In this document: positions 3,243-26,610 of the stretch, one piece after another
Numbering within the stretch: the stretch's first letter is position 1
Layout: each line of letters starts with the position of its first letter
DNA from: a virus
Reading direction: 5' to 3' (one strand)
DNA length: 32,903 nt
IMG/VR virus record: IMGVR_UViG_3300019487_000071
Position numbers and translations under genes: made by a program
Notes under the pieces: generated by a model
Told to the model about the DNA's origin: nothing
Seen by the model: only the letters and a program-made list of their open reading frames with translations
The model's database searches: none

Positions 3243-3595
3243 TCTGGCTGCTCCATGTCTTTTGGGTGCTTGTTCTTAATAAGGCAACTTGCAACGAATA
3301 ACAGACCAGCTACTATTGCCTTCTCTTTAGCTTCCTTAAGCGACTTAAACGTCGCGTTTCCGAGCCATTTGTTTGGGTAATTGCTTGGTCTTTGGTGCCC
3401 GACCATGATATGCCAGCCGGCTGTATTAAACATTTTGGCGTGACGTGAGTACCCACCATAGACACGAACATATATGTCTTTGGTGATGTAAAGATTATGG
3501 CCTTCAGAGCGTTTAGCACCCCACCCTGCACCAAAGTCTTCGTCTTTATCCCACTTGATATGTGAGATGCTTGAAACCTTCTTCGTCTTCTTCAA
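3212..3595 (-). CDS. Hypothetical protein
   Basis: 127-aa ORF packed between neighbouring genes; start uncertain. Confidence 0.55.
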   Translation of the reverse strand: MKKTKKVSSISHIKWDKDEDFGAGWGAKRSEGHNLYITKDIYVRVYGGYSRHAKMFNTAGWHIMVGHQRPSNYPNKWLGNATFKSLKEAKEKAIVAGLLFVASCLIKNKHPKDMEQPEWPPKQKYQK

Positions 3596-3998
3596 GTGAA
3601 ACCTTGATATCTTTCATTTGCAAAATGTCATCGAAATCTTTATACAAATTTTTCGCGATTACTTTCGTGATGCCACAATTGATAAGCATCCTCATGCAGT
3701 GCTTGCAAGGAGAGTGGGTGCAGACGATTGTGCAGTTCTCCATAGAGATGCCATGGCGAGCGCAGTTGGCAATTAGGTTATCTTCGGCGTGCAAGATATA
3801 CTCATACTTTTCAGGACGAGTTGTTGGCAACTCAGCATCCTTAGCATGGCGCACGAAGCCATTGTAGCCAGTGGCCAGAATTGCTCCAGAGGTATTGTTC
3901 ACTAACAATGCACCAACTTTAGTTTGCGAGTCGTGAGAACGAGCTGCACAAACCTCAGCCATGTCCATGTAGTTTTTAGTTTTAGATGACCGACTCAT
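3546..3998 (-). CDS. dCMP deaminase (ComEB-like)
   Basis: S-D--TKVGA, TGYNG, HAE and PCxxC zinc motifs. Confidence 0.92.
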   Translation of the reverse strand: MSRSSKTKNYMDMAEVCAARSHDSQTKVGALLVNNTSGAILATGYNGFVRHAKDAELPTTRPEKYEYILHAEDNLIANCARHGISMENCTIVCTHSPCKHCMRMLINCGITKVIAKNLYKDFDDILQMKDIKVSLEEDEEGFKHLTYQVG

Positions 3999-8008: not shown

Positions 8009-8786
8009 ATCCGAGCATCTTTCTGACCATCTCTTCGTTACGGTCGTAAATGTGAAGTGAGTGAACCGTATGAGTATAGGTTCCCTTTGTGAGCTCAGGA
8101 TAATGCTCCTTTAGCTCTGCGACCATGCGATCCATGAGAGATACAAACCATGGCAGGTCGTATGACAATCCTAACACTAAATCGTTAGAACGCATTACGA
8201 CCGATAGGTGCAACTTATTTTCTCGGATCAAGAAGTTACCGTGCATCGTGCACGTTTGATCCTTGTTACCAAACCATTGGTGGGTGGGGAGAGAGAACCT
8301 GATGATAGCTTGTCTGCTATCCTTGTCTTGGATGAGACTTTGTTTTGCCCATTCCCAAGGAGTACGCCTATAAACCTCGCTGGCTTTAGCTAAGTTCTGC
8401 GAATATTTCCCACCGTTTAAGTCATCTTCAAATGCAGGATGTCCGTGACTCTTATTTTCCCAAATCAAATAGCCATAGGCTGAGTTGACGGTACCATCTG
8501 GGTTCGCTAGCTTTTCCCAGAACTTAGAAGCCTTCGCAAAGTCTTCAACCTTGTTCGAACAAGAGTTATATAGTTCAACTTCTTTGTGTGTATAGCTCTC
8601 AATGACCTTATTGCGCTCTAAATCCTTTGTGACAATTGGCTCAGCAACTGGTTCAGTGACCTTGAAGGTATAGTCCAGCTTCTCGCGAATCGCTTGACCG
8701 CGTGGAGCTGAACGATATTCTGGATTGTTATAAACGTCTGCGAGAGAGCCGAGGTACGCCTCATGGATAGTGCGATAAGTGTTCAT
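8001..8786 (-). CDS. Thymidylate-synthase-family enzyme, probably dCMP hydroxymethylase/methylase
   Basis: RQAII, catalytic Cys in DQTCT, MRSNDLVLGLSYDLPW and SLHIY; Asp occupies the base-specificity position. Confidence 0.8.
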   Translation of the reverse strand: MNTYRTIHEAYLGSLADVYNNPEYRSAPRGQAIREKLDYTFKVTEPVAEPIVTKDLERNKVIESYTHKEVELYNSCSNKVEDFAKASKFWEKLANPDGTVNSAYGYLIWENKSHGHPAFEDDLNGGKYSQNLAKASEVYRRTPWEWAKQSLIQDKDSRQAIIRFSLPTHQWFGNKDQTCTMHGNFLIRENKLHLSVVMRSNDLVLGLSYDLPWFVSLMDRMVAELKEHYPELTKGTYTHTVHSLHIYDRNEEMVRKMLGYV

Positions 8787-12190: not shown

Positions 12191-12757
12191 TTACTGGCGA
12201 GATAAATCTCGTAAGTACTTCTTATGTTTGTCCAATACCATACCGCGCTTAACAGGACCGAACTGATCTATGTAAAGCTTGCCGTTCAGGTGGTCCATCT
12301 CGTGTTGGATGGCAATCGCCTTCAATCCATGAAACGTTTCTTCATGACGGATATTGTTAGCAAGATCCATCGTGCGAGTGTATTGCAACGTTAGGGTATT
12401 GTACCTTTTTGTTTTTGCAGATGTTCCGGGGATGGATAGACAGGCTTCAGTGAAGTCGATAGGATTCTCGACTGAGACGACTTCTGGGTTGATGAACTCT
12501 TCGTTGTTTCCGTCTACGCCTAATACGAACACGGCGTAGTTGACCCCAATTTGATTGGCAGCCAAACCGATACCTTTCTCTCGCTTCATCACTTCAACCA
12601 TAGTGTGAACCAAGGTAGGCATCTTGCTCAGTTCCTCTGGAGGAACCGGAATGCACTTTTGCCGCAATACAGGATCATTTAAGAGTCTGACAGCAGGTAA
12701 TTCCATATATGTGATTAGTTTCAGAAATTTATTGTGTTTCTTGACGAATACGTACAT
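12191..12757 (-). CDS. def: Peptide deformylase
   Basis: GIGLAANQIG, EACLS and HEMDH motifs; the true start may be the ATG at 12706. Confidence 0.95.
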   Translation of the reverse strand: MYVFVKKHNKFLKLITYMELPAVRLLNDPVLRQKCIPVPPEELSKMPTLVHTMVEVMKREKGIGLAANQIGVNYAVFVLGVDGNNEEFINPEVVSVENPIDFTEACLSIPGTSAKTKRYNTLTLQYTRTMDLANNIRHEETFHGLKAIAIQHEMDHLNGKLYIDQFGPVKRGMVLDKHKKYLRDLSRQ

Positions 12758-13162: not shown

Positions 13163-13235
13163 TGGTGTCCAGCGTGGAGTCTAACCACCCAACCCTAAGA
13201 CGTCTCAAAGGGTCCATCACGCGAATGTGCCGGAC
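13163..13235 (-). ncRNA. tRNA-like RNA with Pyl-like body and 12-nt anticodon loop
   Basis: GTCCGGC/GCTGGAC acceptor stem + ACCA; 1-nt connector; CATT-CGCGT-GATG D arm; ACCCT/AGGGT stem with loop TTGAGACGTCTT; T loop TTAGACT. Confidence 0.65.
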
Positions 13236-16306: not shown

Positions 16307-16525
16307 TGGTGTTCGCTGTAGGCCTCAAACCTACGACTCCAGCCTCAAATGCGATGTGCGGGTGGCTGGTGTTTTTTCGCGAGACGTTTCGTACTTGATT
16401 TCTATTGTTCATCAGGTCTTGTCCGGCGTTTAACCGGCTCGACGTTTCTATGAGCTTCCGCCCATCGCATTGTTACCTGACGATTTTTCAACCTTTCCTA
16501 CTAATCCTCTCTAAACTAAACGAAC
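16307..16525 (-). ncRNA. 219-nt tRNA-like (tmRNA-reminiscent) RNA
   Basis: Acceptor stem GTTCGTT/AGCGAAC + ACCA; T arm GTAGG-TTTGAGG-CCTAC; about 180-nt internal segment with long, crossing helices. Confidence 0.65.
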
Positions 16526-18357: not shown

Positions 18358-18433
18358 TGGTGCCTCCGTAGAGAATCGAGCCCTCTTCCACGGGTTAAAA
18401 GCCCGCTGCTCATCCATTAAAGCGTTCGGAGGC
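18358..18433 (-). tRNA. tRNA-Lys(TTT)
   Basis: Loop CTTTTAA; T loop CTCGATT; CCA. Confidence 0.88.
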
Positions 18434-20344: not shown

Positions 20345-21379
20345 TTAAATCTTACCATGCGCTCCATTCTCTTTAGTAGAGTTGGGCGTGATTAGGTTAA
20401 AAGCAGCTCTCATGCGGAACTCATCTAGGGAACGAGCACCGACATAAGTCATAGAGGAACGCAAGCCGCCTTCGATGTCTTGTAGGACATAAGCAACTGG
20501 TCCTTTGCAACGAACTAGGAAGGACTCACCTTCCGCAGTGCGCCATGAACTATCTTTGCCCTGAGCTTCGTAGCTCTCTTTAGAGGCTGACCCACGATAC
20601 TTCTTGAACCATACTCCTGCACCAGCATCCAATGTCTGGACCTTTTGTCCAGGGGTTTCGTCTGTGCCAGAGAGCATTCCGCCGACCATAACAAGCTTAG
20701 CTCCAGCTGCAAGTGCCTTAGCGATATCACCTGGAGTTTTGAGTCCTCCGTCCGCAATAACGTTTGCTCCGGTTGCAACGCAATCCATGATGGCCGATAG
20801 CTGAGGAACTCCAATACCCGTCTTGATGCGAGTGGTACATGCAGAGCCTGGACCAACGCCAACCTTGTAGTAGGCAACAATCGGTGCGCCAAGATGATAC
20901 TCAAAATCTTTGATCGATTGTCCAGTTGCAAAGTTCCCTGCAGTGATGTAAACCTTGTTGCTAAGGGCATCGTGAACAGCTTTCGCTTGCTCAACAACCG
21001 CAAGTTGAGCTCCATGTGCAACATCAATGACGATGTTAGTGGCTCCCACCGTTGCTAGTGCAACAGCTCGTTCCAACTCATATTCACCTAAGCCGATAGA
21101 AATAGCGGGACCATAGCCGTTTGGCCATAGGCAGGACTTATAAATCCTCACATTATCTTCGATAGACCCGAAGCGGTGTAGGCAGCCAATTCCGCCAGCG
21201 CTACCCATTGCATTCGCCATCTCGAAACCTGTGACGGTATCCATGTTGGCAGAGATGACAGGAAGTGAGAGTTTGGCATCACCGAAGTGAGTTGTCAAGT
21301 CTACTTCCTTACGGGACTTAATGCTAGAGAAACCTGGGGCGATCAGCACATCATCGAACGTGAACAGCTGCTTGTCCAT
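20345..21379 (-). CDS. guaC: GMP reductase (IMPDH/GMPR family, no CBS domains)
   Basis: [32 protein letters not shown] and KYRGSAS; GSAS fits GuaC better than the IMPDH GMGS. Confidence 0.85.
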
Positions 21380-21387
21380 TGTGGATC

Positions 21388-21876
21388 CTATTTGAGGAGG
21401 TCAGTGAGGTGGGACCACATAGCTTCATTCTCGCCAGTGGTGTATAGAGCTTCTTTAAAGCCTTGGAACTCTTTCTTGTACATGTTTAGGAAGTCTTGCT
21501 CGTGCTCAATAGAGGCTTCAACGTTCGCAATGCGGTCAGCGAGCTTGAGAACCACTGCGTCCTTAGACGCTTTGATTTTAACGTACGTCTTGACGTGGCG
21601 TTCCTTGCGATTCTTTCCCGGCTCATTTGTGACACGCCAAACAAGGTCTCGTACGCGAGCACCAAATAGTTCTTCAATTTCTTCGAGAGAGACATCGGTG
21701 TCTTCAACTGTATCGTGAAGCCAGGCGGCCATTTGGAGTTCTTCATCGTTTACTCCGAACCTAGCAAGGACGTTAACTACAGCATACAGGTGCTTGGTGT
21801 ACGGACCACCGTCGTACTCTTGCCCTAGGTGGGCATCAGCTGCGAACTCTCTTGCTTTAGATAGAGCATCAGACAT
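21388..21876 (-). CDS. HD-domain small alarmone hydrolase (RelA/SpoT hydrolase, Mesh1-like)
   Basis: AH.GQ...PYTKHL..V, LHDTVEDT and LKLADRIAN. Confidence 0.88.
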   Translation of the reverse strand: MSDALSKAREFAADAHLGQEYDGGPYTKHLYAVVNVLARFGVNDEELQMAAWLHDTVEDTDVSLEEIEELFGARVRDLVWRVTNEPGKNRKERHVKTYVKIKASKDAVVLKLADRIANVEASIEHEQDFLNMYKKEFQGFKEALYTTGENEAMWSHLTDLLK

Positions 21877-22259
21877 TATGCACCAACGTAGATAGGTTCA
21901 CCAGGTCCTACGAAACTGTAGAGACCGTCTTTTACTTTCTTAAATTCGGCGTCAGGTGCGCGATACACCATCGAGATGTCGCGGCGAACAAAGACTTCGT
22001 TCCTCTTCTTATCGAAGTAGAGGACATAGCCTAAAGCCTCGTTTCGTTCGACATAATAATCTAAGTCTTTATCGTTGCCGTAGCAGATGAAGATACGATC
22101 ATCACGAGAACGGTCACGCTTCTTGATTTCAGACTTTTTCTTTTCCATTGGCATGGGCATATTTGTATTATACGAATTGATTTTTGATGTGGCGGAGAGC
22201 ATCCTATTCGAAAGGAACGCAGAGTGAACATGCGCGATATGCTTAGCAGACATTCCCAT
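21876..22259 (-). CDS. Hypothetical protein
   Basis: ORF coupled to the hydrolase start; true start uncertain. Confidence 0.5.
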   Translation of the reverse strand: MGMSAKHIAHVHSAFLSNRMLSATSKINSYNTNMPMPMEKKKSEIKKRDRSRDDRIFICYGNDKDLDYYVERNEALGYVLYFDKKRNEVFVRRDISMVYRAPDAEFKKVKDGLYSFVGPGEPIYVGA

Positions 22260-22288
22260 AGACCTCTATAGCTTTACTCTCCAAATTT

Positions 22289-22359
22289 TGGTACTCTCGA
22301 CTGGAATCGAACCAGTTCAGCAGCTTTAGGAAAGCTGTGCCTCGTCCTAGAGCGAGAGC
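22289..22359 (-). tRNA. tRNA-Arg(CCT), shortened D arm
   Basis: Loop TTCCTAA; 71 nt; CCA. Confidence 0.8.
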
Positions 22360-23071: not shown

Positions 23072-23161
23072 TGGTGGGTTGTGAAGGAGTTGAACCATTC
23101 GTCTTCCCGCTCTACCGTTTAGAGACAACTGGGTTACAGCCAGCCGTAGAGAACACAACCC
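23072..23161 (-). tRNA. Atypical tRNA-Tyr(GTA)
   Basis: GGGTTGT/ACAACCC + ACCA; loop CTGTAAC; no canonical D arm; variable region about 28 nt. Confidence 0.7.
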
Positions 23162-23167
23162 AAACTA

Positions 23168-23521
23168 TTAAACTTCATCCATTCCGAGTTTGCGACTAAT
23201 CAAGTTGCCCTGATCACTTCGCTCCTCAATCTCAACATGTCCTAGACCTGCTTCAATCTTTAGCTTTAGCCAAGATTGGAATTCAGGCGTTGCGCACATT
23301 CTTTCGAAAGCAGTCTTGCGATTTTGACTTTGCTCTCTACTGTCGGTAGCCTTGCCTTCAGCACCACTAGATTCATGAACGCAGCGAACTCCGCTTGAGG
23401 TCTTCTGACGTTTCTGTCCGCCGTCTCCGCTACCTCTAAAAACGTCCCAGCGACAGTCAGCTGCCGTCACGCTGAACATCTTCGTTCGATTCTTTTTCCT
23501 TGCGCTCGACCCATTGTTCAT
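23168..23521 (-). CDS. Class I release-factor domain protein (ArfB/YaeJ-like peptidyl-tRNA hydrolase)
   Basis: FRGSGDGGQKRQKTSSGVRCVH...SREQSQNRKTAF: standalone GGQ domain with no codon-recognition domain. Confidence 0.88.
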   Translation of the reverse strand: MNNGSSARKKNRTKMFSVTAADCRWDVFRGSGDGGQKRQKTSSGVRCVHESSGAEGKATDSREQSQNRKTAFERMCATPEFQSWLKLKIEAGLGHVEIEERSDQGNLISRKLGMDEV

Positions 23522-23638: not shown

Positions 23639-23724
23639 TGGCGGAAGGTAGACGAATCGAACGCCCGACCTTTCGGTCGCCCTGGGGTTCAAGCCCAGTT
23701 GCCCACCATTGAGCGGTACCTTCC
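23639..23724 (-). tRNA. tRNA-Ser(TGA)
   Basis: Loop CTTGAAC; long variable arm; G73; CCA. Confidence 0.9.
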
Positions 23725-23731
23725 ATATTTG

Positions 23732-24042
23732 GTTAGAGACAGTCGATAAGCGGAATCCTGTCTAGGACTATCATTCGACTTGGACCGAACATTACTGTTG
23801 GCCTCTTTGCCTGGTACCCGATAGCACTCCGAGCAGGAGTATCACTATCCTATTTCCAGTTGCTGCACGAAGAGATTGCTCGTTTCACCCCAGTGTTTCG
23901 TAACCTACTCGACTGGACTCGTCTCTGTAGCTCTAATCGTCACCTCACGGTGCTGGGCCGTTAACCCATTCGTCGCTCTTGCAGTTCCGACTTTCCTCAC
24001 TCCTACTTGCGTAGGTCGCGCGATAGTCTGACCGTCTCTAAC
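23732..24042 (-). ncRNA. rnpB: RNase P RNA (compact)
   Basis: P1 TTAGAGACGGTC/GACTGTCTCTAA; P2 GACTATC/GATAGTC; CR-I GAGGAAAGTCGG; GCTACAGAGAC; GGTGAAAC; CR-V ACAGGATTCCGCTTAT. Confidence 0.92.
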
Positions 24043-24371: not shown

Positions 24372-24447
24372 TGGTGCCGATTGTCAGTATCGATCTGACT
24401 CCTCTAGCTTTTCAGACTAGCGCTTCTACCTAGTTAGCTTAATCGGC
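24372..24447 (-). tRNA. tRNA-Phe(GAA)
   Basis: Loop CTGAAAA; T loop ATCGATA; CCA. Confidence 0.9.
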
Positions 24448-24759
24448 ATTTTGTAATTTTTCATGCTCTTCTGCGTGACAATTTGCACACAATAGAACAC
24501 ATTTCTTTAACTCTTCTTGAACTTTTTCCCAAGAAGGATTGCTTGCCTTTGAGATCTGAAAGTCCTTCTTTGTGGGATCTAAGTGATGAAACGATAAAGC
24601 TCGTTTACACCTTGAATATCCACAGTTTTGGCACTTACCTCCCATGAACGCTAGTGCCTTTTCCTTTATATTGCGTCTTGCGGTTCTAACCCTACATTTT
24701 GCGCAAATATTACGTTCTTTGTCTTTATGCTCTTTTCCACATGTAGTGCATAACTTCAT
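24439..24759 (-). CDS. HNH endonuclease; stop codon inside tRNA-Phe
   Basis: CQNC...LSFHHLDP...KCVLLCANCHAEEH. The ATG at 24759 follows the 3' end (GGAG) of tRNA-Asn #2. Confidence 0.88.
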   Translation of the reverse strand: MKLCTTCGKEHKDKERNICAKCRVRTARRNIKEKALAFMGGKCQNCGYSRCKRALSFHHLDPTKKDFQISKASNPSWEKVQEELKKCVLLCANCHAEEHEKLQNAD

Positions 24760-24763
24760 AACT

Positions 24764-24837
24764 TGGCTCCAGGGCAGGGACTCGAACCCCGATATCAGCA
24801 TTAACAGTGCAGCGTCCTACCATTAAACGACCCCGGA
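24764..24837 (-). tRNA. tRNA-Asn(GTT) #2
   Basis: Loop CTGTTAA; TCC/GGA acceptor; G73; CCA. Confidence 0.9.
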
Positions 24838-24846
24838 ATATAAACT

Positions 24847-24879
24847 TGGCGGGGCATCGCGCGAAAGCGCGATAACCCC
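24847..24879 (-). ncRNA. CCA-ended minihelix
   Basis: GGGGTTATCGCGC-TTTC-GCGCGATGCCCC-G-CCA. Confidence 0.6.
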
Positions 24880-24888
24880 ATTTTAATT

Positions 24889-24910
24889 TGGTGGGGCGCT
24901 GCAGCGCCCC
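24889..24910 (-). ncRNA. CCA-ended 7-bp microhelix
   Basis: GGGGCGC-TGCA-GCGCCCC-A-CCA. Confidence 0.6.
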
Positions 24911-24966
24911 ATATTAAACGATTTGTTTCGGATTGTACGAGTGTAAGCGGATTCGCGACCTGTTTG

Positions 24967-25056
24967 TTAGCTTCTATTAAAGAAACTATACAAATGCGCA
25001 TTGGAGCTTGAGAAAGCCCTCGAGGATAAGCTATTTGTAAACAGTTGCGCGTTCAT
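24967..25056 (-). CDS. Leaderless small ORF (29 aa)
   Basis: GGGG-TATAAT + 6 nt + ATG; MNAQLFTNSLSSRAFSSSNAHLYSFFNRS. Confidence 0.35.
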   Translation of the reverse strand: MNAQLFTNSLSSRAFSSSNAHLYSFFNRS

Positions 25057-25063
25057 GAAAATA

Positions 25064-25309
25064 TTATACCCCATTTTTTAGGACTTCGGTTTCAAAAGGA
25101 TCATTTGCTGTTATTTTTGTTATCGAGAGCCCAACGCCTTCTTTTTCAGCACATATGGTCATAACCTTACATGCTGTAAGCCCTCTATTTTTCAGCCATT
25201 CTTCAATTTGTTCTCTGGTGCTCTTGACGCTGATGTAGTCGATATCTACGCCAAAATTAAGTATGATTAGGTCGCCATCTACGATCTGTAGCGTATTTAT
25301 TCCAATCAC
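25064..25309 (-). CDS. Hypothetical protein (C-terminal FETEVLK motif)
   Basis: 81-aa ORF coupled to the upstream gene. Confidence 0.6.
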   Translation of the reverse strand: MIGINTLQIVDGDLIILNFGVDIDYISVKSTREQIEEWLKNRGLTACKVMTICAEKEGVGLSITKITANDPFETEVLKNGV

Positions 25310-25716: not shown

Positions 25717-25886
25717 TAGAAACTCTTCAATCGTTTACAGTTTTTGCAAGTAACTTTCTTCTTGTTTTCGGTGGTCTTCAATCCATCACCAGAGAAGTGC
25801 ATCATACCGTTGCAGCAAAGTTGCGCATAGATGAAACGATAACGTCCACGGAATTCAGACCAGTAGTGAGTCCAATGGACTTTCAT
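25716..25886 (-). CDS. Small hypothetical protein (56 aa)
   Basis: MKVHWTHYW...VTCKNCKRLKSF; its ATG overlaps the Pth2 stop and its stop overlaps the next ATG. Confidence 0.55.
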   Translation of the reverse strand: MKVHWTHYWSEFRGRYRFIYAQLCCNGMMHFSGDGLKTTENKKKVTCKNCKRLKSF

Positions 25887-26281
25887 AATAGTGGAAGCCT
25901 ACCTGTGATGGCGTCAACCTTGCTAACCTCACATGGGCCAATTGCACAGCATGTTAGAGTTGGAACTCCGTTAAACTCAGTGTGCCCTGCATCCCTGATC
26001 AAGCCCGCTGGCAAATCAGCGTTGCAAGCATCCTGATAAACCTTCAGGAGCTCAGCTTCGGAATTTACGTAGACGCAAATCTTGGTGAACGCATTGTTCA
26101 TCCAGTGAGTCATCTCGGGGGTTGCTTCGAGACGAAACGTCCCACTGCCGTCCTTCGCAAACCCATATTGCTTCATTCGATCAAAGAAGACTTTCATAGA
26201 AGCATGCGCAGCTTGAGCAGCAATTTTGCCCTTACGCATGTTCAAGTCTTTTCGCATAACGATGACTTGTTTTGTATTCAT
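25883..26281 (-). CDS. Peptidyl-tRNA hydrolase, PTH2 family
   Basis: KQVIVMRKDL.M.KGKIAAQAAHAS...DAGHTEF...T..AIGP. Confidence 0.93.
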   Translation of the reverse strand: MNTKQVIVMRKDLNMRKGKIAAQAAHASMKVFFDRMKQYGFAKDGSGTFRLEATPEMTHWMNNAFTKICVYVNSEAELLKVYQDACNADLPAGLIRDAGHTEFNGVPTLTCCAIGPCEVSKVDAITGRLPLL

Positions 26282-26295
26282 ATATGTTTTTAGGA

Positions 26296-26610
26296 TCAGG
26301 AATTGGCTCTGTCGATCGCATCTAGGTAAGTGCTTTCGTTTTGTGCACCTACGATTTGTTCGACTAGTTTTCCGTCTTTGAAGATTAATACCGTGGGAAT
26401 GCCACGGATGTTGAACTCAGCAGCTTTCTCAGAATGGTCGTCGACGTTGATCTTTCCGATCATTGCCTTATCTGAGTGCTCGTTGCTGATCTTTTCGAGG
26501 ATAGGACCAACCTTGCGGCAAGGTCCACACCATGGAGCCCAGAAATCTACTAGAACAACTCCGGACGTATTGATTACCGCTTCAAAGTCTTGATCAGTGA
26601 TTTCACTCAT
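26296..26610 (-). CDS. trxA: Thioredoxin
   Basis: DFWAPWCGPC; cis-Pro motif GIPT. Confidence 0.95.
   Translation of the reverse strand: MSEITDQDFEAVINTSGVVLVDFWAPWCGPCRKVGPILEKISNEHSDKAMIGKINVDDHSEKAAEFNIRGIPTVLIFKDGKLVEQIVGAQNESTYLDAIDRANS

Follow-up and report, generated by a model that had tools for sequence, protein, structure and literature searches.

What are two short hairpins with tRNA-like NCCA ends and no anticodon doing at the head of a phage tRNA array? Minihelices and microhelices have served since the late 1980s as laboratory tools for studying how the acceptor end is read by aminoacyl-tRNA synthetases, RNase P, EF-Tu and the CCA-adding enzyme, and toxins acting on the tRNA end have more recently been studied with minihelices. 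Our literature searches found no paper describing natural genes for CCA-ended mini-hairpins. We addressed the question in a 32,903-nt stretch of DNA from an uncultured phage, IMG/VR record IMGVR_UViG_3300019487_000071, which is called the window throughout and to which all coordinates refer unless a related phage is named.

Two CCA-ended hairpins precede the first tRNA of the array

A first-pass annotation made from the letters of the window had placed a perfect 7-bp microhelix and a minihelix of about 12 bp, each with an NCCA end, at 24847-24911. Both are present as described, and the span holds for the pair except at its upper end, which overshoots by one base, 24911 being the T at position -1; we further specify that the hairpin RNAs are those of the minus strand. 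The features of this region are as follows.

24911..25068, minus strand: promoter and leader module, with a TATAAT -10 box at 25068..25063, then 6 nt and an ATG at 25056
24910..24889, minus strand: microhelix, GGGGCGC-UGCA-GCGCCCC-ACCA, 22 nt
24880..24888, minus strand: AT-rich spacer of 9 nt between microhelix and minihelix, AAUUAAAAU, its last base U being position -1 of the minihelix
24879..24847, minus strand: minihelix, GGGGUUAUCGCGC-UUUC-GCGCGAUGCCCC-GCCA, 33 nt
24838..24846, minus strand: AT-rich spacer of 9 nt between minihelix and tRNA-Asn, AGUUUAUAU, its last base U being position -1 of tRNA-Asn
24837..24764, minus strand: tRNA-Asn(GTT), the first true tRNA of the array, with U1:A72, G73 and an encoded CCA
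23730..24040, minus strand: class A RNase P RNA (Rfam, 184 bits), within the array and about 800 nt downstream of the hairpins

Read along the minus strand, the head of the array thus runs from the TATAAT box through 6 nt, the ATG and a leader of about 145 nt to the microhelix, a spacer, the minihelix, a second spacer and tRNA-Asn, with both hairpins placed between the conserved promoter and leader and the first tRNA. The leader contains a possible ORF of 29 codons (25056..24967) and, at about 24990..24970, a conserved hairpin; judged by its sequence, the module could represent either a small leaderless ORF or an RNA element through which the tRNA operon is controlled from its leader.

The microhelix stem consists of seven perfect Watson-Crick pairs (GGGGCGC/GCGCCCC) closed by a UGCA loop and followed by discriminator A and CCA. 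Its fold has a free energy of -16.2 kcal/mol, and that structure makes up 99% of the ensemble; at the DNA level the 18-nt stem-loop, loop included, is a perfect palindrome. The minihelix has 12 bp (11 Watson-Crick pairs and one U.G pair), one bulged U, a UUUC loop, discriminator G and CCA, and folds at -22.2 kcal/mol. Both hairpins fold independently within the 283-nt transcript that runs from leader to tRNA. We also considered a 64-nt three-way junction, formed by the 5' strand of the first hairpin and the 3' strand of the second through a GGGG/CCCC swap, and rejected it, as it was not the minimum free energy structure and was not recognised by the tRNA model. The minus-strand forms of the hairpins are more stable than the plus-strand forms. 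For the minihelix, the plus-strand hairpin with its GAAA loop, which the first-pass annotation had named as the form that would speak against a minus-strand RNA if it were the one transcribed, reaches only -19.4 kcal/mol, because the U.G pair of the minus strand becomes a C/A mismatch on the plus strand.

In a public assembly, one 124-kb contig of which contains the identical stretch, no gene is called over the hairpins. A coding reading was rejected: the 66-codon ORF at 24801..25001, which overlaps the tRNA and both hairpins, is not called there.

The hairpins follow the gene format of the tRNA array

The array extends from about 13.0 to 24.9 kb on the minus strand, which holds nearly all genes of the window. 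ARAGORN predicts 26 tRNAs, and Rfam adds three tRNA matches and the class A RNase P RNA, whose match spans 24039..23731. All 26 ARAGORN tRNAs have an encoded CCA, about 22 of the 26 have a T at -1, usually with an A before it, and the trailers are AT-rich with an A-rich start ('CCAaa/ag...'). Both hairpins are written in the same tRNA-gene format: AU, then a unit of the form GGGG...CCCC-N-CCA, then AA or AG, with 9-nt spacers. The earlier claim that they share the orientation and the AT-rich spacers of the true tRNAs is thereby upheld, and the likeness extends to the T at -1, G+1, and a discriminator with encoded CCA.

The microhelix, moreover, reproduces a 7-bp acceptor stem with discriminator and CCA, and in the minihelix G and CCA come after the outer helix in the manner of a tRNA acceptor. 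The cloverleaf is absent, both being single stem-loops without D, anticodon and T arms. In agreement with the annotation's statement that there is no anticodon, ARAGORN and Rfam give no tRNA there even at E≤1, and no Rfam family at all matches 24847-24910 at E≤1. Compared with the canonical tRNA genes of phage arrays (RF00005), the hairpins are therefore alike in strand, flanks (T at -1, encoded CCA and AT-rich spacers), operon and presumed processing, and unlike in having no D, anticodon, variable or T arm and in their lengths of 22 and 33 nt.

A minus-strand scan for a 7-bp terminal helix followed by NCCA recovered the tRNAs together with several units that ARAGORN misses:

16307-16525, 13163-13235, 23639-23724, 23072-23161, 22289-22359, 22190-22282 and 18358-18433, minus strand: units with terminal helix, CCA and AT-rich trailer

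These include a 219-nt RNA (16525..16307), a 73-nt tRNA-like RNA and units of 86-93 nt, the last of which look, by sequence, like long-arm tRNAs of the Ser/Tyr type. 'Helix, NCCA and AT-rich spacer' looks like the general gene format of the array, because the scan finds in this format the tRNAs, the other units and the RNase P RNA, which has A-CCA directly after its P1 helix. HNH endonuclease ORFs (24439-24801, minus strand, and others) are wedged among the tRNA genes, and their stop codons fall in the 5' part of the next tRNA; in the related phage L008 (about 3611-3836), the HNH stop TAA lies within GGAAGGTTAA of the next tRNA-like unit.

The hairpin pair is not a product of chance

Among compact hairpins of the minus strand, scanned over the whole window, the two rank first and third in stability and are the sole near-perfect GC-rich stems in an intergenic stretch. 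When the stem had to end exactly one base before CCA, the minihelix was the strongest hairpin with an NCCA end on either strand. We then compared the pair with 2000 dinucleotide-preserving shuffles of the minus strand. A hairpin with NCCA end as stable as the minihelix (-20.5 kcal/mol or lower) arose in two of the 2000 shuffles and one as stable as the microhelix in 194, whereas two such units of -14.5 kcal/mol or better within 60 nt arose in none. The first-pass annotation had judged two independent NCCA ends unlikely by chance, and the shuffles bear this out. The test confirms that the hairpin pair is real and lies beyond chance.

The hairpin block is absent from related phages

No match to the region was found in INPHARED phages, in IMG/VR or in JGI metagenome contigs, and searches for cultured relatives with the PTH2 and GMP reductase proteins gave only distant matches of less than 50% identity. 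Relatives were reached instead via homologues of two neighbouring proteins, PTH2 (69% identical in L008 and 77% in L009) and a 136-aa protein (family profile E-values of 3e-28 for L015 and 6e-24 for L017). These four phages form the comparison set. Left out of it were SRR16915460 and SRR21397094, the nearest lineages by neighbouring-protein identity (61% and 72%, respectively), the contig of the latter ending before the region; L001 is the same phage, at 99.99% identity. The homologous features in the relatives are:

L008, 2990-3163: leader module; 3284-3603: RNase P RNA
L015, 7945-8096: leader module; 8427-8718: RNase P RNA
L017, 7200-7359: leader module; 8103-8447: RNase P RNA
L009, 2975-3135: leader module

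L008, L015 and L017 retain the module of promoter, ATG six bases past the -10 box, homologous leader and tRNA-Asn, with a class A RNase P RNA downstream (151-161 bits), which comes after a tRNA-Phe in L015 and L017 but not in L008. In L009, promoter and leader are retained and lead into an Ala-like tRNA that is cut by the contig end. The head module that these phages share consists of GTGGTATAAT, six bases, an ATG and a possible ORF of 29-35 codons (M-x-T-Q-L...), and its leader hairpin (TAGTYTCT/AGARGCTA type) overlaps the stop codon and shows compensatory changes at two pairs across four phages.

In all four relatives the leader is joined directly to a tRNA (tRNA-Asn in three), and no unit of hairpin and NCCA occurs at this junction or elsewhere in the array parts of L008, L009, L015 and L017. 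In the window, a 73-nt block made up of the two hairpins and the two spacers fills the exact interval from the end of the conserved leader (...UUUAAUAU) to the first tRNA. Judged by these four phages, the block is a lineage-specific insertion and not a conserved part of such arrays, because their leader abuts the tRNA without hairpins; for the same reason, neither conservation nor covariation supports the hairpins. The first-pass annotation had named full tRNAs in relatives, with a recent internal deletion in the window, as a finding that would count against it. The relatives do have a tRNA against the leader and no hairpins, in all four cases (the tRNA being cut by the contig end in L009), but the comparison does not show the hairpins to be internally deleted tRNAs. 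A motif search with GGGGCGC-N4-GCGCCCC-NCCA gave 27 IMG/VR loci, none of them in a tRNA slot, and most look like opposite-strand terminators.

Signals for RNase P are concentrated near the predicted cut

[quoted passage not shown] It keeps the GGGUA (GGU) motif of L15, which in RNase P RNA pairs with the RCCA of the substrate (PMC11143913), whereas its specificity domain is short of a 43-nt insert. In the window and L008, A-CCA comes directly after its own P1 helix, as it would in a tRNA; L015 and L017 lack this ending.

Bacterial RNase P RNA cuts hairpins made of acceptor and T stem with RCCA at the canonical position, and its known determinants include U-1 and the pairing of RCCA with GGU; model substrates in which a tetraloop takes the place of the T loop are cut less efficiently, and the cut may move to -2/-1 (PMC11143913). 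Both hairpins of the window carry the cleavage-site signals U-1, G+1:C+72 and R73-C74-C75. The coaxial helix of about 12 bp known from good model substrates is present in the minihelix (12 bp and a bulge), the microhelix having only 7 bp, and neither has the T loop by which such substrates dock on the specificity domain, both loops being of 4 nt (UGCA and UUUC). RNase P excision is plausible, though not assured, because the signals proximal to the cut are all present and the distal T loop is absent. Set beside the synthetic hairpin substrates of RNase P (those of the McClain, Guerrier-Takada and Altman type and of the pATSer type, as reviewed in PMC11143913), the minihelix is alike in its coaxial helix of about 12 bp, and both hairpins in the 5' leader, U-1, G+1 and 3' RCCA, with a GGU-bearing ribozyme encoded nearby. 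Unlike those substrates, the hairpins are natural and genome-encoded, bear tetraloops and, in the microhelix, have a stem of 7 bp, and their cleavage is predicted.

Neither hairpin reveals an amino-acid identity or a known toxin determinant

Both hairpins begin with G1-C72, G2-C71, G3-C70 and G4-C69, and their discriminators are A73 in the microhelix and G73 in the minihelix, neither being U73 or C73. The main determinant of alanine identity is G3:U70 (PMC9976931); neither hairpin has alanine identity, both being G3:C70. The combination of G3:U70 and A73 that marks alanine micro- and minihelices is found in neither, and the minihelix departs from it by its G73 as well. Going by these positions, an amino-acid identity is not readable from either hairpin.

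As a precedent for a protein that reads the acceptor end, a synthetic minihelix is a good in vitro substrate of the CCA-pyrophosphorylating toxSAS FaRel2, whose determinants are G1-C72, C2-G71, G4-C69 and either G5-C68 or A5-U68 (10.1101/2024.07.05.602228). This set is incomplete in the window, as pair 2:71 is G-C in both hairpins. Compared with the minihelix and microhelix substrates of synthetases (minihelix-Ala, Francklyn and Schimmel 1989, cited in PMC9976931) and of FaRel2, the hairpins are alike in their acceptor-type helix of 7 or 12 bp and in the discriminator with single-stranded CCA, the minimal form that acceptor-end readers accept in vitro. They are unlike these substrates in having none of G3:U70 (Ala), G-1:C73 (His), U73 (Cys and Gly) or C2-G71.

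The array is accompanied by a set of genes for the maintenance of translation:

12191-12757, 20345-21379, 21388-21876, 23168-23521, 25883-26281 and 26296-26610, minus strand: translation-maintenance gene set around the array

Among its members are a peptide deformylase, a GMP reductase-like dehydrogenase, an HD_4 protein (small alarmone hydrolase-like), an ArfB-like RF-1 domain protein, a PTH2 peptidyl-tRNA hydrolase and a thioredoxin. The phage clearly invests in keeping translation running, and this gene set ties the hairpins to no particular toxin.

A tentative model and its alternatives

The explanation that we favour, tentatively and at a little short of an even chance, is that the hairpins are accessory cassettes in tRNA slots, which RNase P and trimming at the 3' end would release as CCA-ended mimics of the acceptor stem. 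They are called accessory because four related phages do without them. We infer the following course. Minus-strand transcription from the TATAAT box at 25068..25063 would pass through the conserved leader and reach the hairpins as the opening units of the tRNA operon. RNase P, whether the host enzyme, the phage RNase P RNA or both, would cut at G+1 of each hairpin, as should be expected because each unit has U-1, G+1:C+72, a purine discriminator and CCA, and the AU-rich trailers would be trimmed to the encoded CCA as in the neighbouring tRNAs. The products, if they accumulate, would be hairpin RNAs of 22 and 33 nt with a free NCCA-3'OH, that is, anticodon-less mimics of the acceptor end, and their likeliest use would be to occupy, or compete for, a protein that reads the acceptor stem and CCA. 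Candidates for such a protein would be a toxin of the host's defences that modifies tRNA at its 3' end, or a host enzyme working on tRNA ends. The roles that the first-pass annotation had put forward, as decoys, as synthetase or EF-Tu sponges or as RNase P substrates, are accordingly conjectural.

The hairpins may instead act in cis, either by offering sites at which RNase P and 3' trimming would separate tRNA-Asn from the leader and the small ORF it may contain, or, as stable leader stem-loops, by setting the order or rate of tRNA-Asn cleavage by RNase P. Their location exactly between the conserved leader and the first tRNA suits such a role, and there is a precedent in a dicistronic tRNA precursor, where stable 5'-leader stem-loops slow RNase P down and impose a direction on processing (PMC10731613). 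That the RNase P RNA of the window and L008 has A-CCA after its terminal helix also suggests that 'helix and NCCA' can act as a general excision signal here, but this ending is absent in L015 and L017. In addition, the same leader joins the tRNA directly in four relatives, with no punctuation, one hairpin would be enough and two of differing length and discriminator are left unexplained, and the RNase P protein could still bind the tRNA-Asn leader, which the 9-nt single-stranded spacer keeps accessible. We consider the cis-acting role unlikely. Doubtful to a similar degree is that the hairpins are non-functional remnants, be it leftover tRNA genes or tRNA 3' ends copied by snap-back or duplication, which have kept acceptor complementarity and CCA only through recency. 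The absence of the pair from four relatives with a tRNA at the exact spot (cut by the contig end in L009) speaks for this, and rearrangement of the region is evident from an additional tRNA-Asn and an HNH endonuclease gene that the window carries here and L015 and L017 lack. The perfect 18-bp palindrome of the microhelix would suit copying of a tRNA 3' strand by snap-back, although this is speculation. Of 43 tRNAs, the tRNA-Asn that heads the array of L015 matches the minihelix ends best, with 21 of 30 positions in agreement, but with z of about 2.6 the match is no more than expected for the best of 43 comparisons. We accordingly rejected derivation from tRNA-Asn, as this best match is not significant and alignment to tRNA-Asn genes is not meaningful. 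A single internal deletion in a tRNA would yield neither hairpin, because neither loop resembles a T loop, and the pair that closes the minihelix loop is C-G instead of G53-C61. Two adjacent clean events would be needed, each of which would have to preserve a perfect stem and an exact NCCA and leave a regular spacer of 9 nt with a terminal T, and a full tRNA-Asn still stands directly after the hairpins.

A role of the plus strand or of the DNA itself is very improbable. The minihelix could be an antisense intrinsic terminator, since its GAAA-loop hairpin (-19.4 kcal/mol) is followed on the plus strand by the T-rich run AUUUUAAUUU, and most IMG/VR matches to GGGGCGC-N4-GCGCCCC look like opposite-strand terminators with an A-run before the hairpin; alternatively, the 18-bp palindrome of the microhelix could be the binding site of a dimeric protein. 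A terminator scan, however, flags no site at the hairpins, and there is no plus-strand gene to terminate, because between about 2.8 kb and 32.5 kb every ORF of at least 90 aa in a gene-consistent frame belongs to the minus strand. The T-rich run is merely the complement of the A-rich spacers that commonly follow CCA in the tRNAs of the array, the microhelix is followed on the plus strand by AUAUUAAAC, not a U tract, and the minihelix has the C/A mismatch in place of the minus-strand U.G pair. Both the terminator and the binding site, furthermore, leave two exact NCCA ends unexplained. An intrinsic terminator on the minus strand was rejected likewise, as the tails ACCAAAUUAAAAU and GCCAAGUUUAUAU are not U tracts and the terminator scan finds no site.

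Against the favoured reading of the hairpins as excised acceptor-stem mimics we count the tetraloops, the 7-bp stem of the microhelix, the absence from relatives, the lack of a synthetase identity and of the C2-G71 of FaRel2 substrates, and the fact that the exact microhelix motif does not recur in IMG/VR tRNA arrays. Going further, the stable 22-nt and 33-nt RNAs might serve as acceptor-end decoys that soak up a defence enzyme modifying tRNA 3' ends or titrate a factor that binds acceptor stems, and might belong to an undescribed class of 'tRNA-top' genes gained and lost fast in the conflict with host defence; we think this extension improbable. A decoy role is plausible and would be compatible with the lineage-specific gain.

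As an exemplar of such genes this hairpin pair is a weak one, being absent in four relatives and carrying no assignable amino-acid identity. If the favoured reading is true, a natural minihelix gene in a tRNA slot beside a phage RNase P ribozyme would mean that viruses put the acceptor end to work as a molecule in its own right, and the locus would offer a simple system for asking what binds it.
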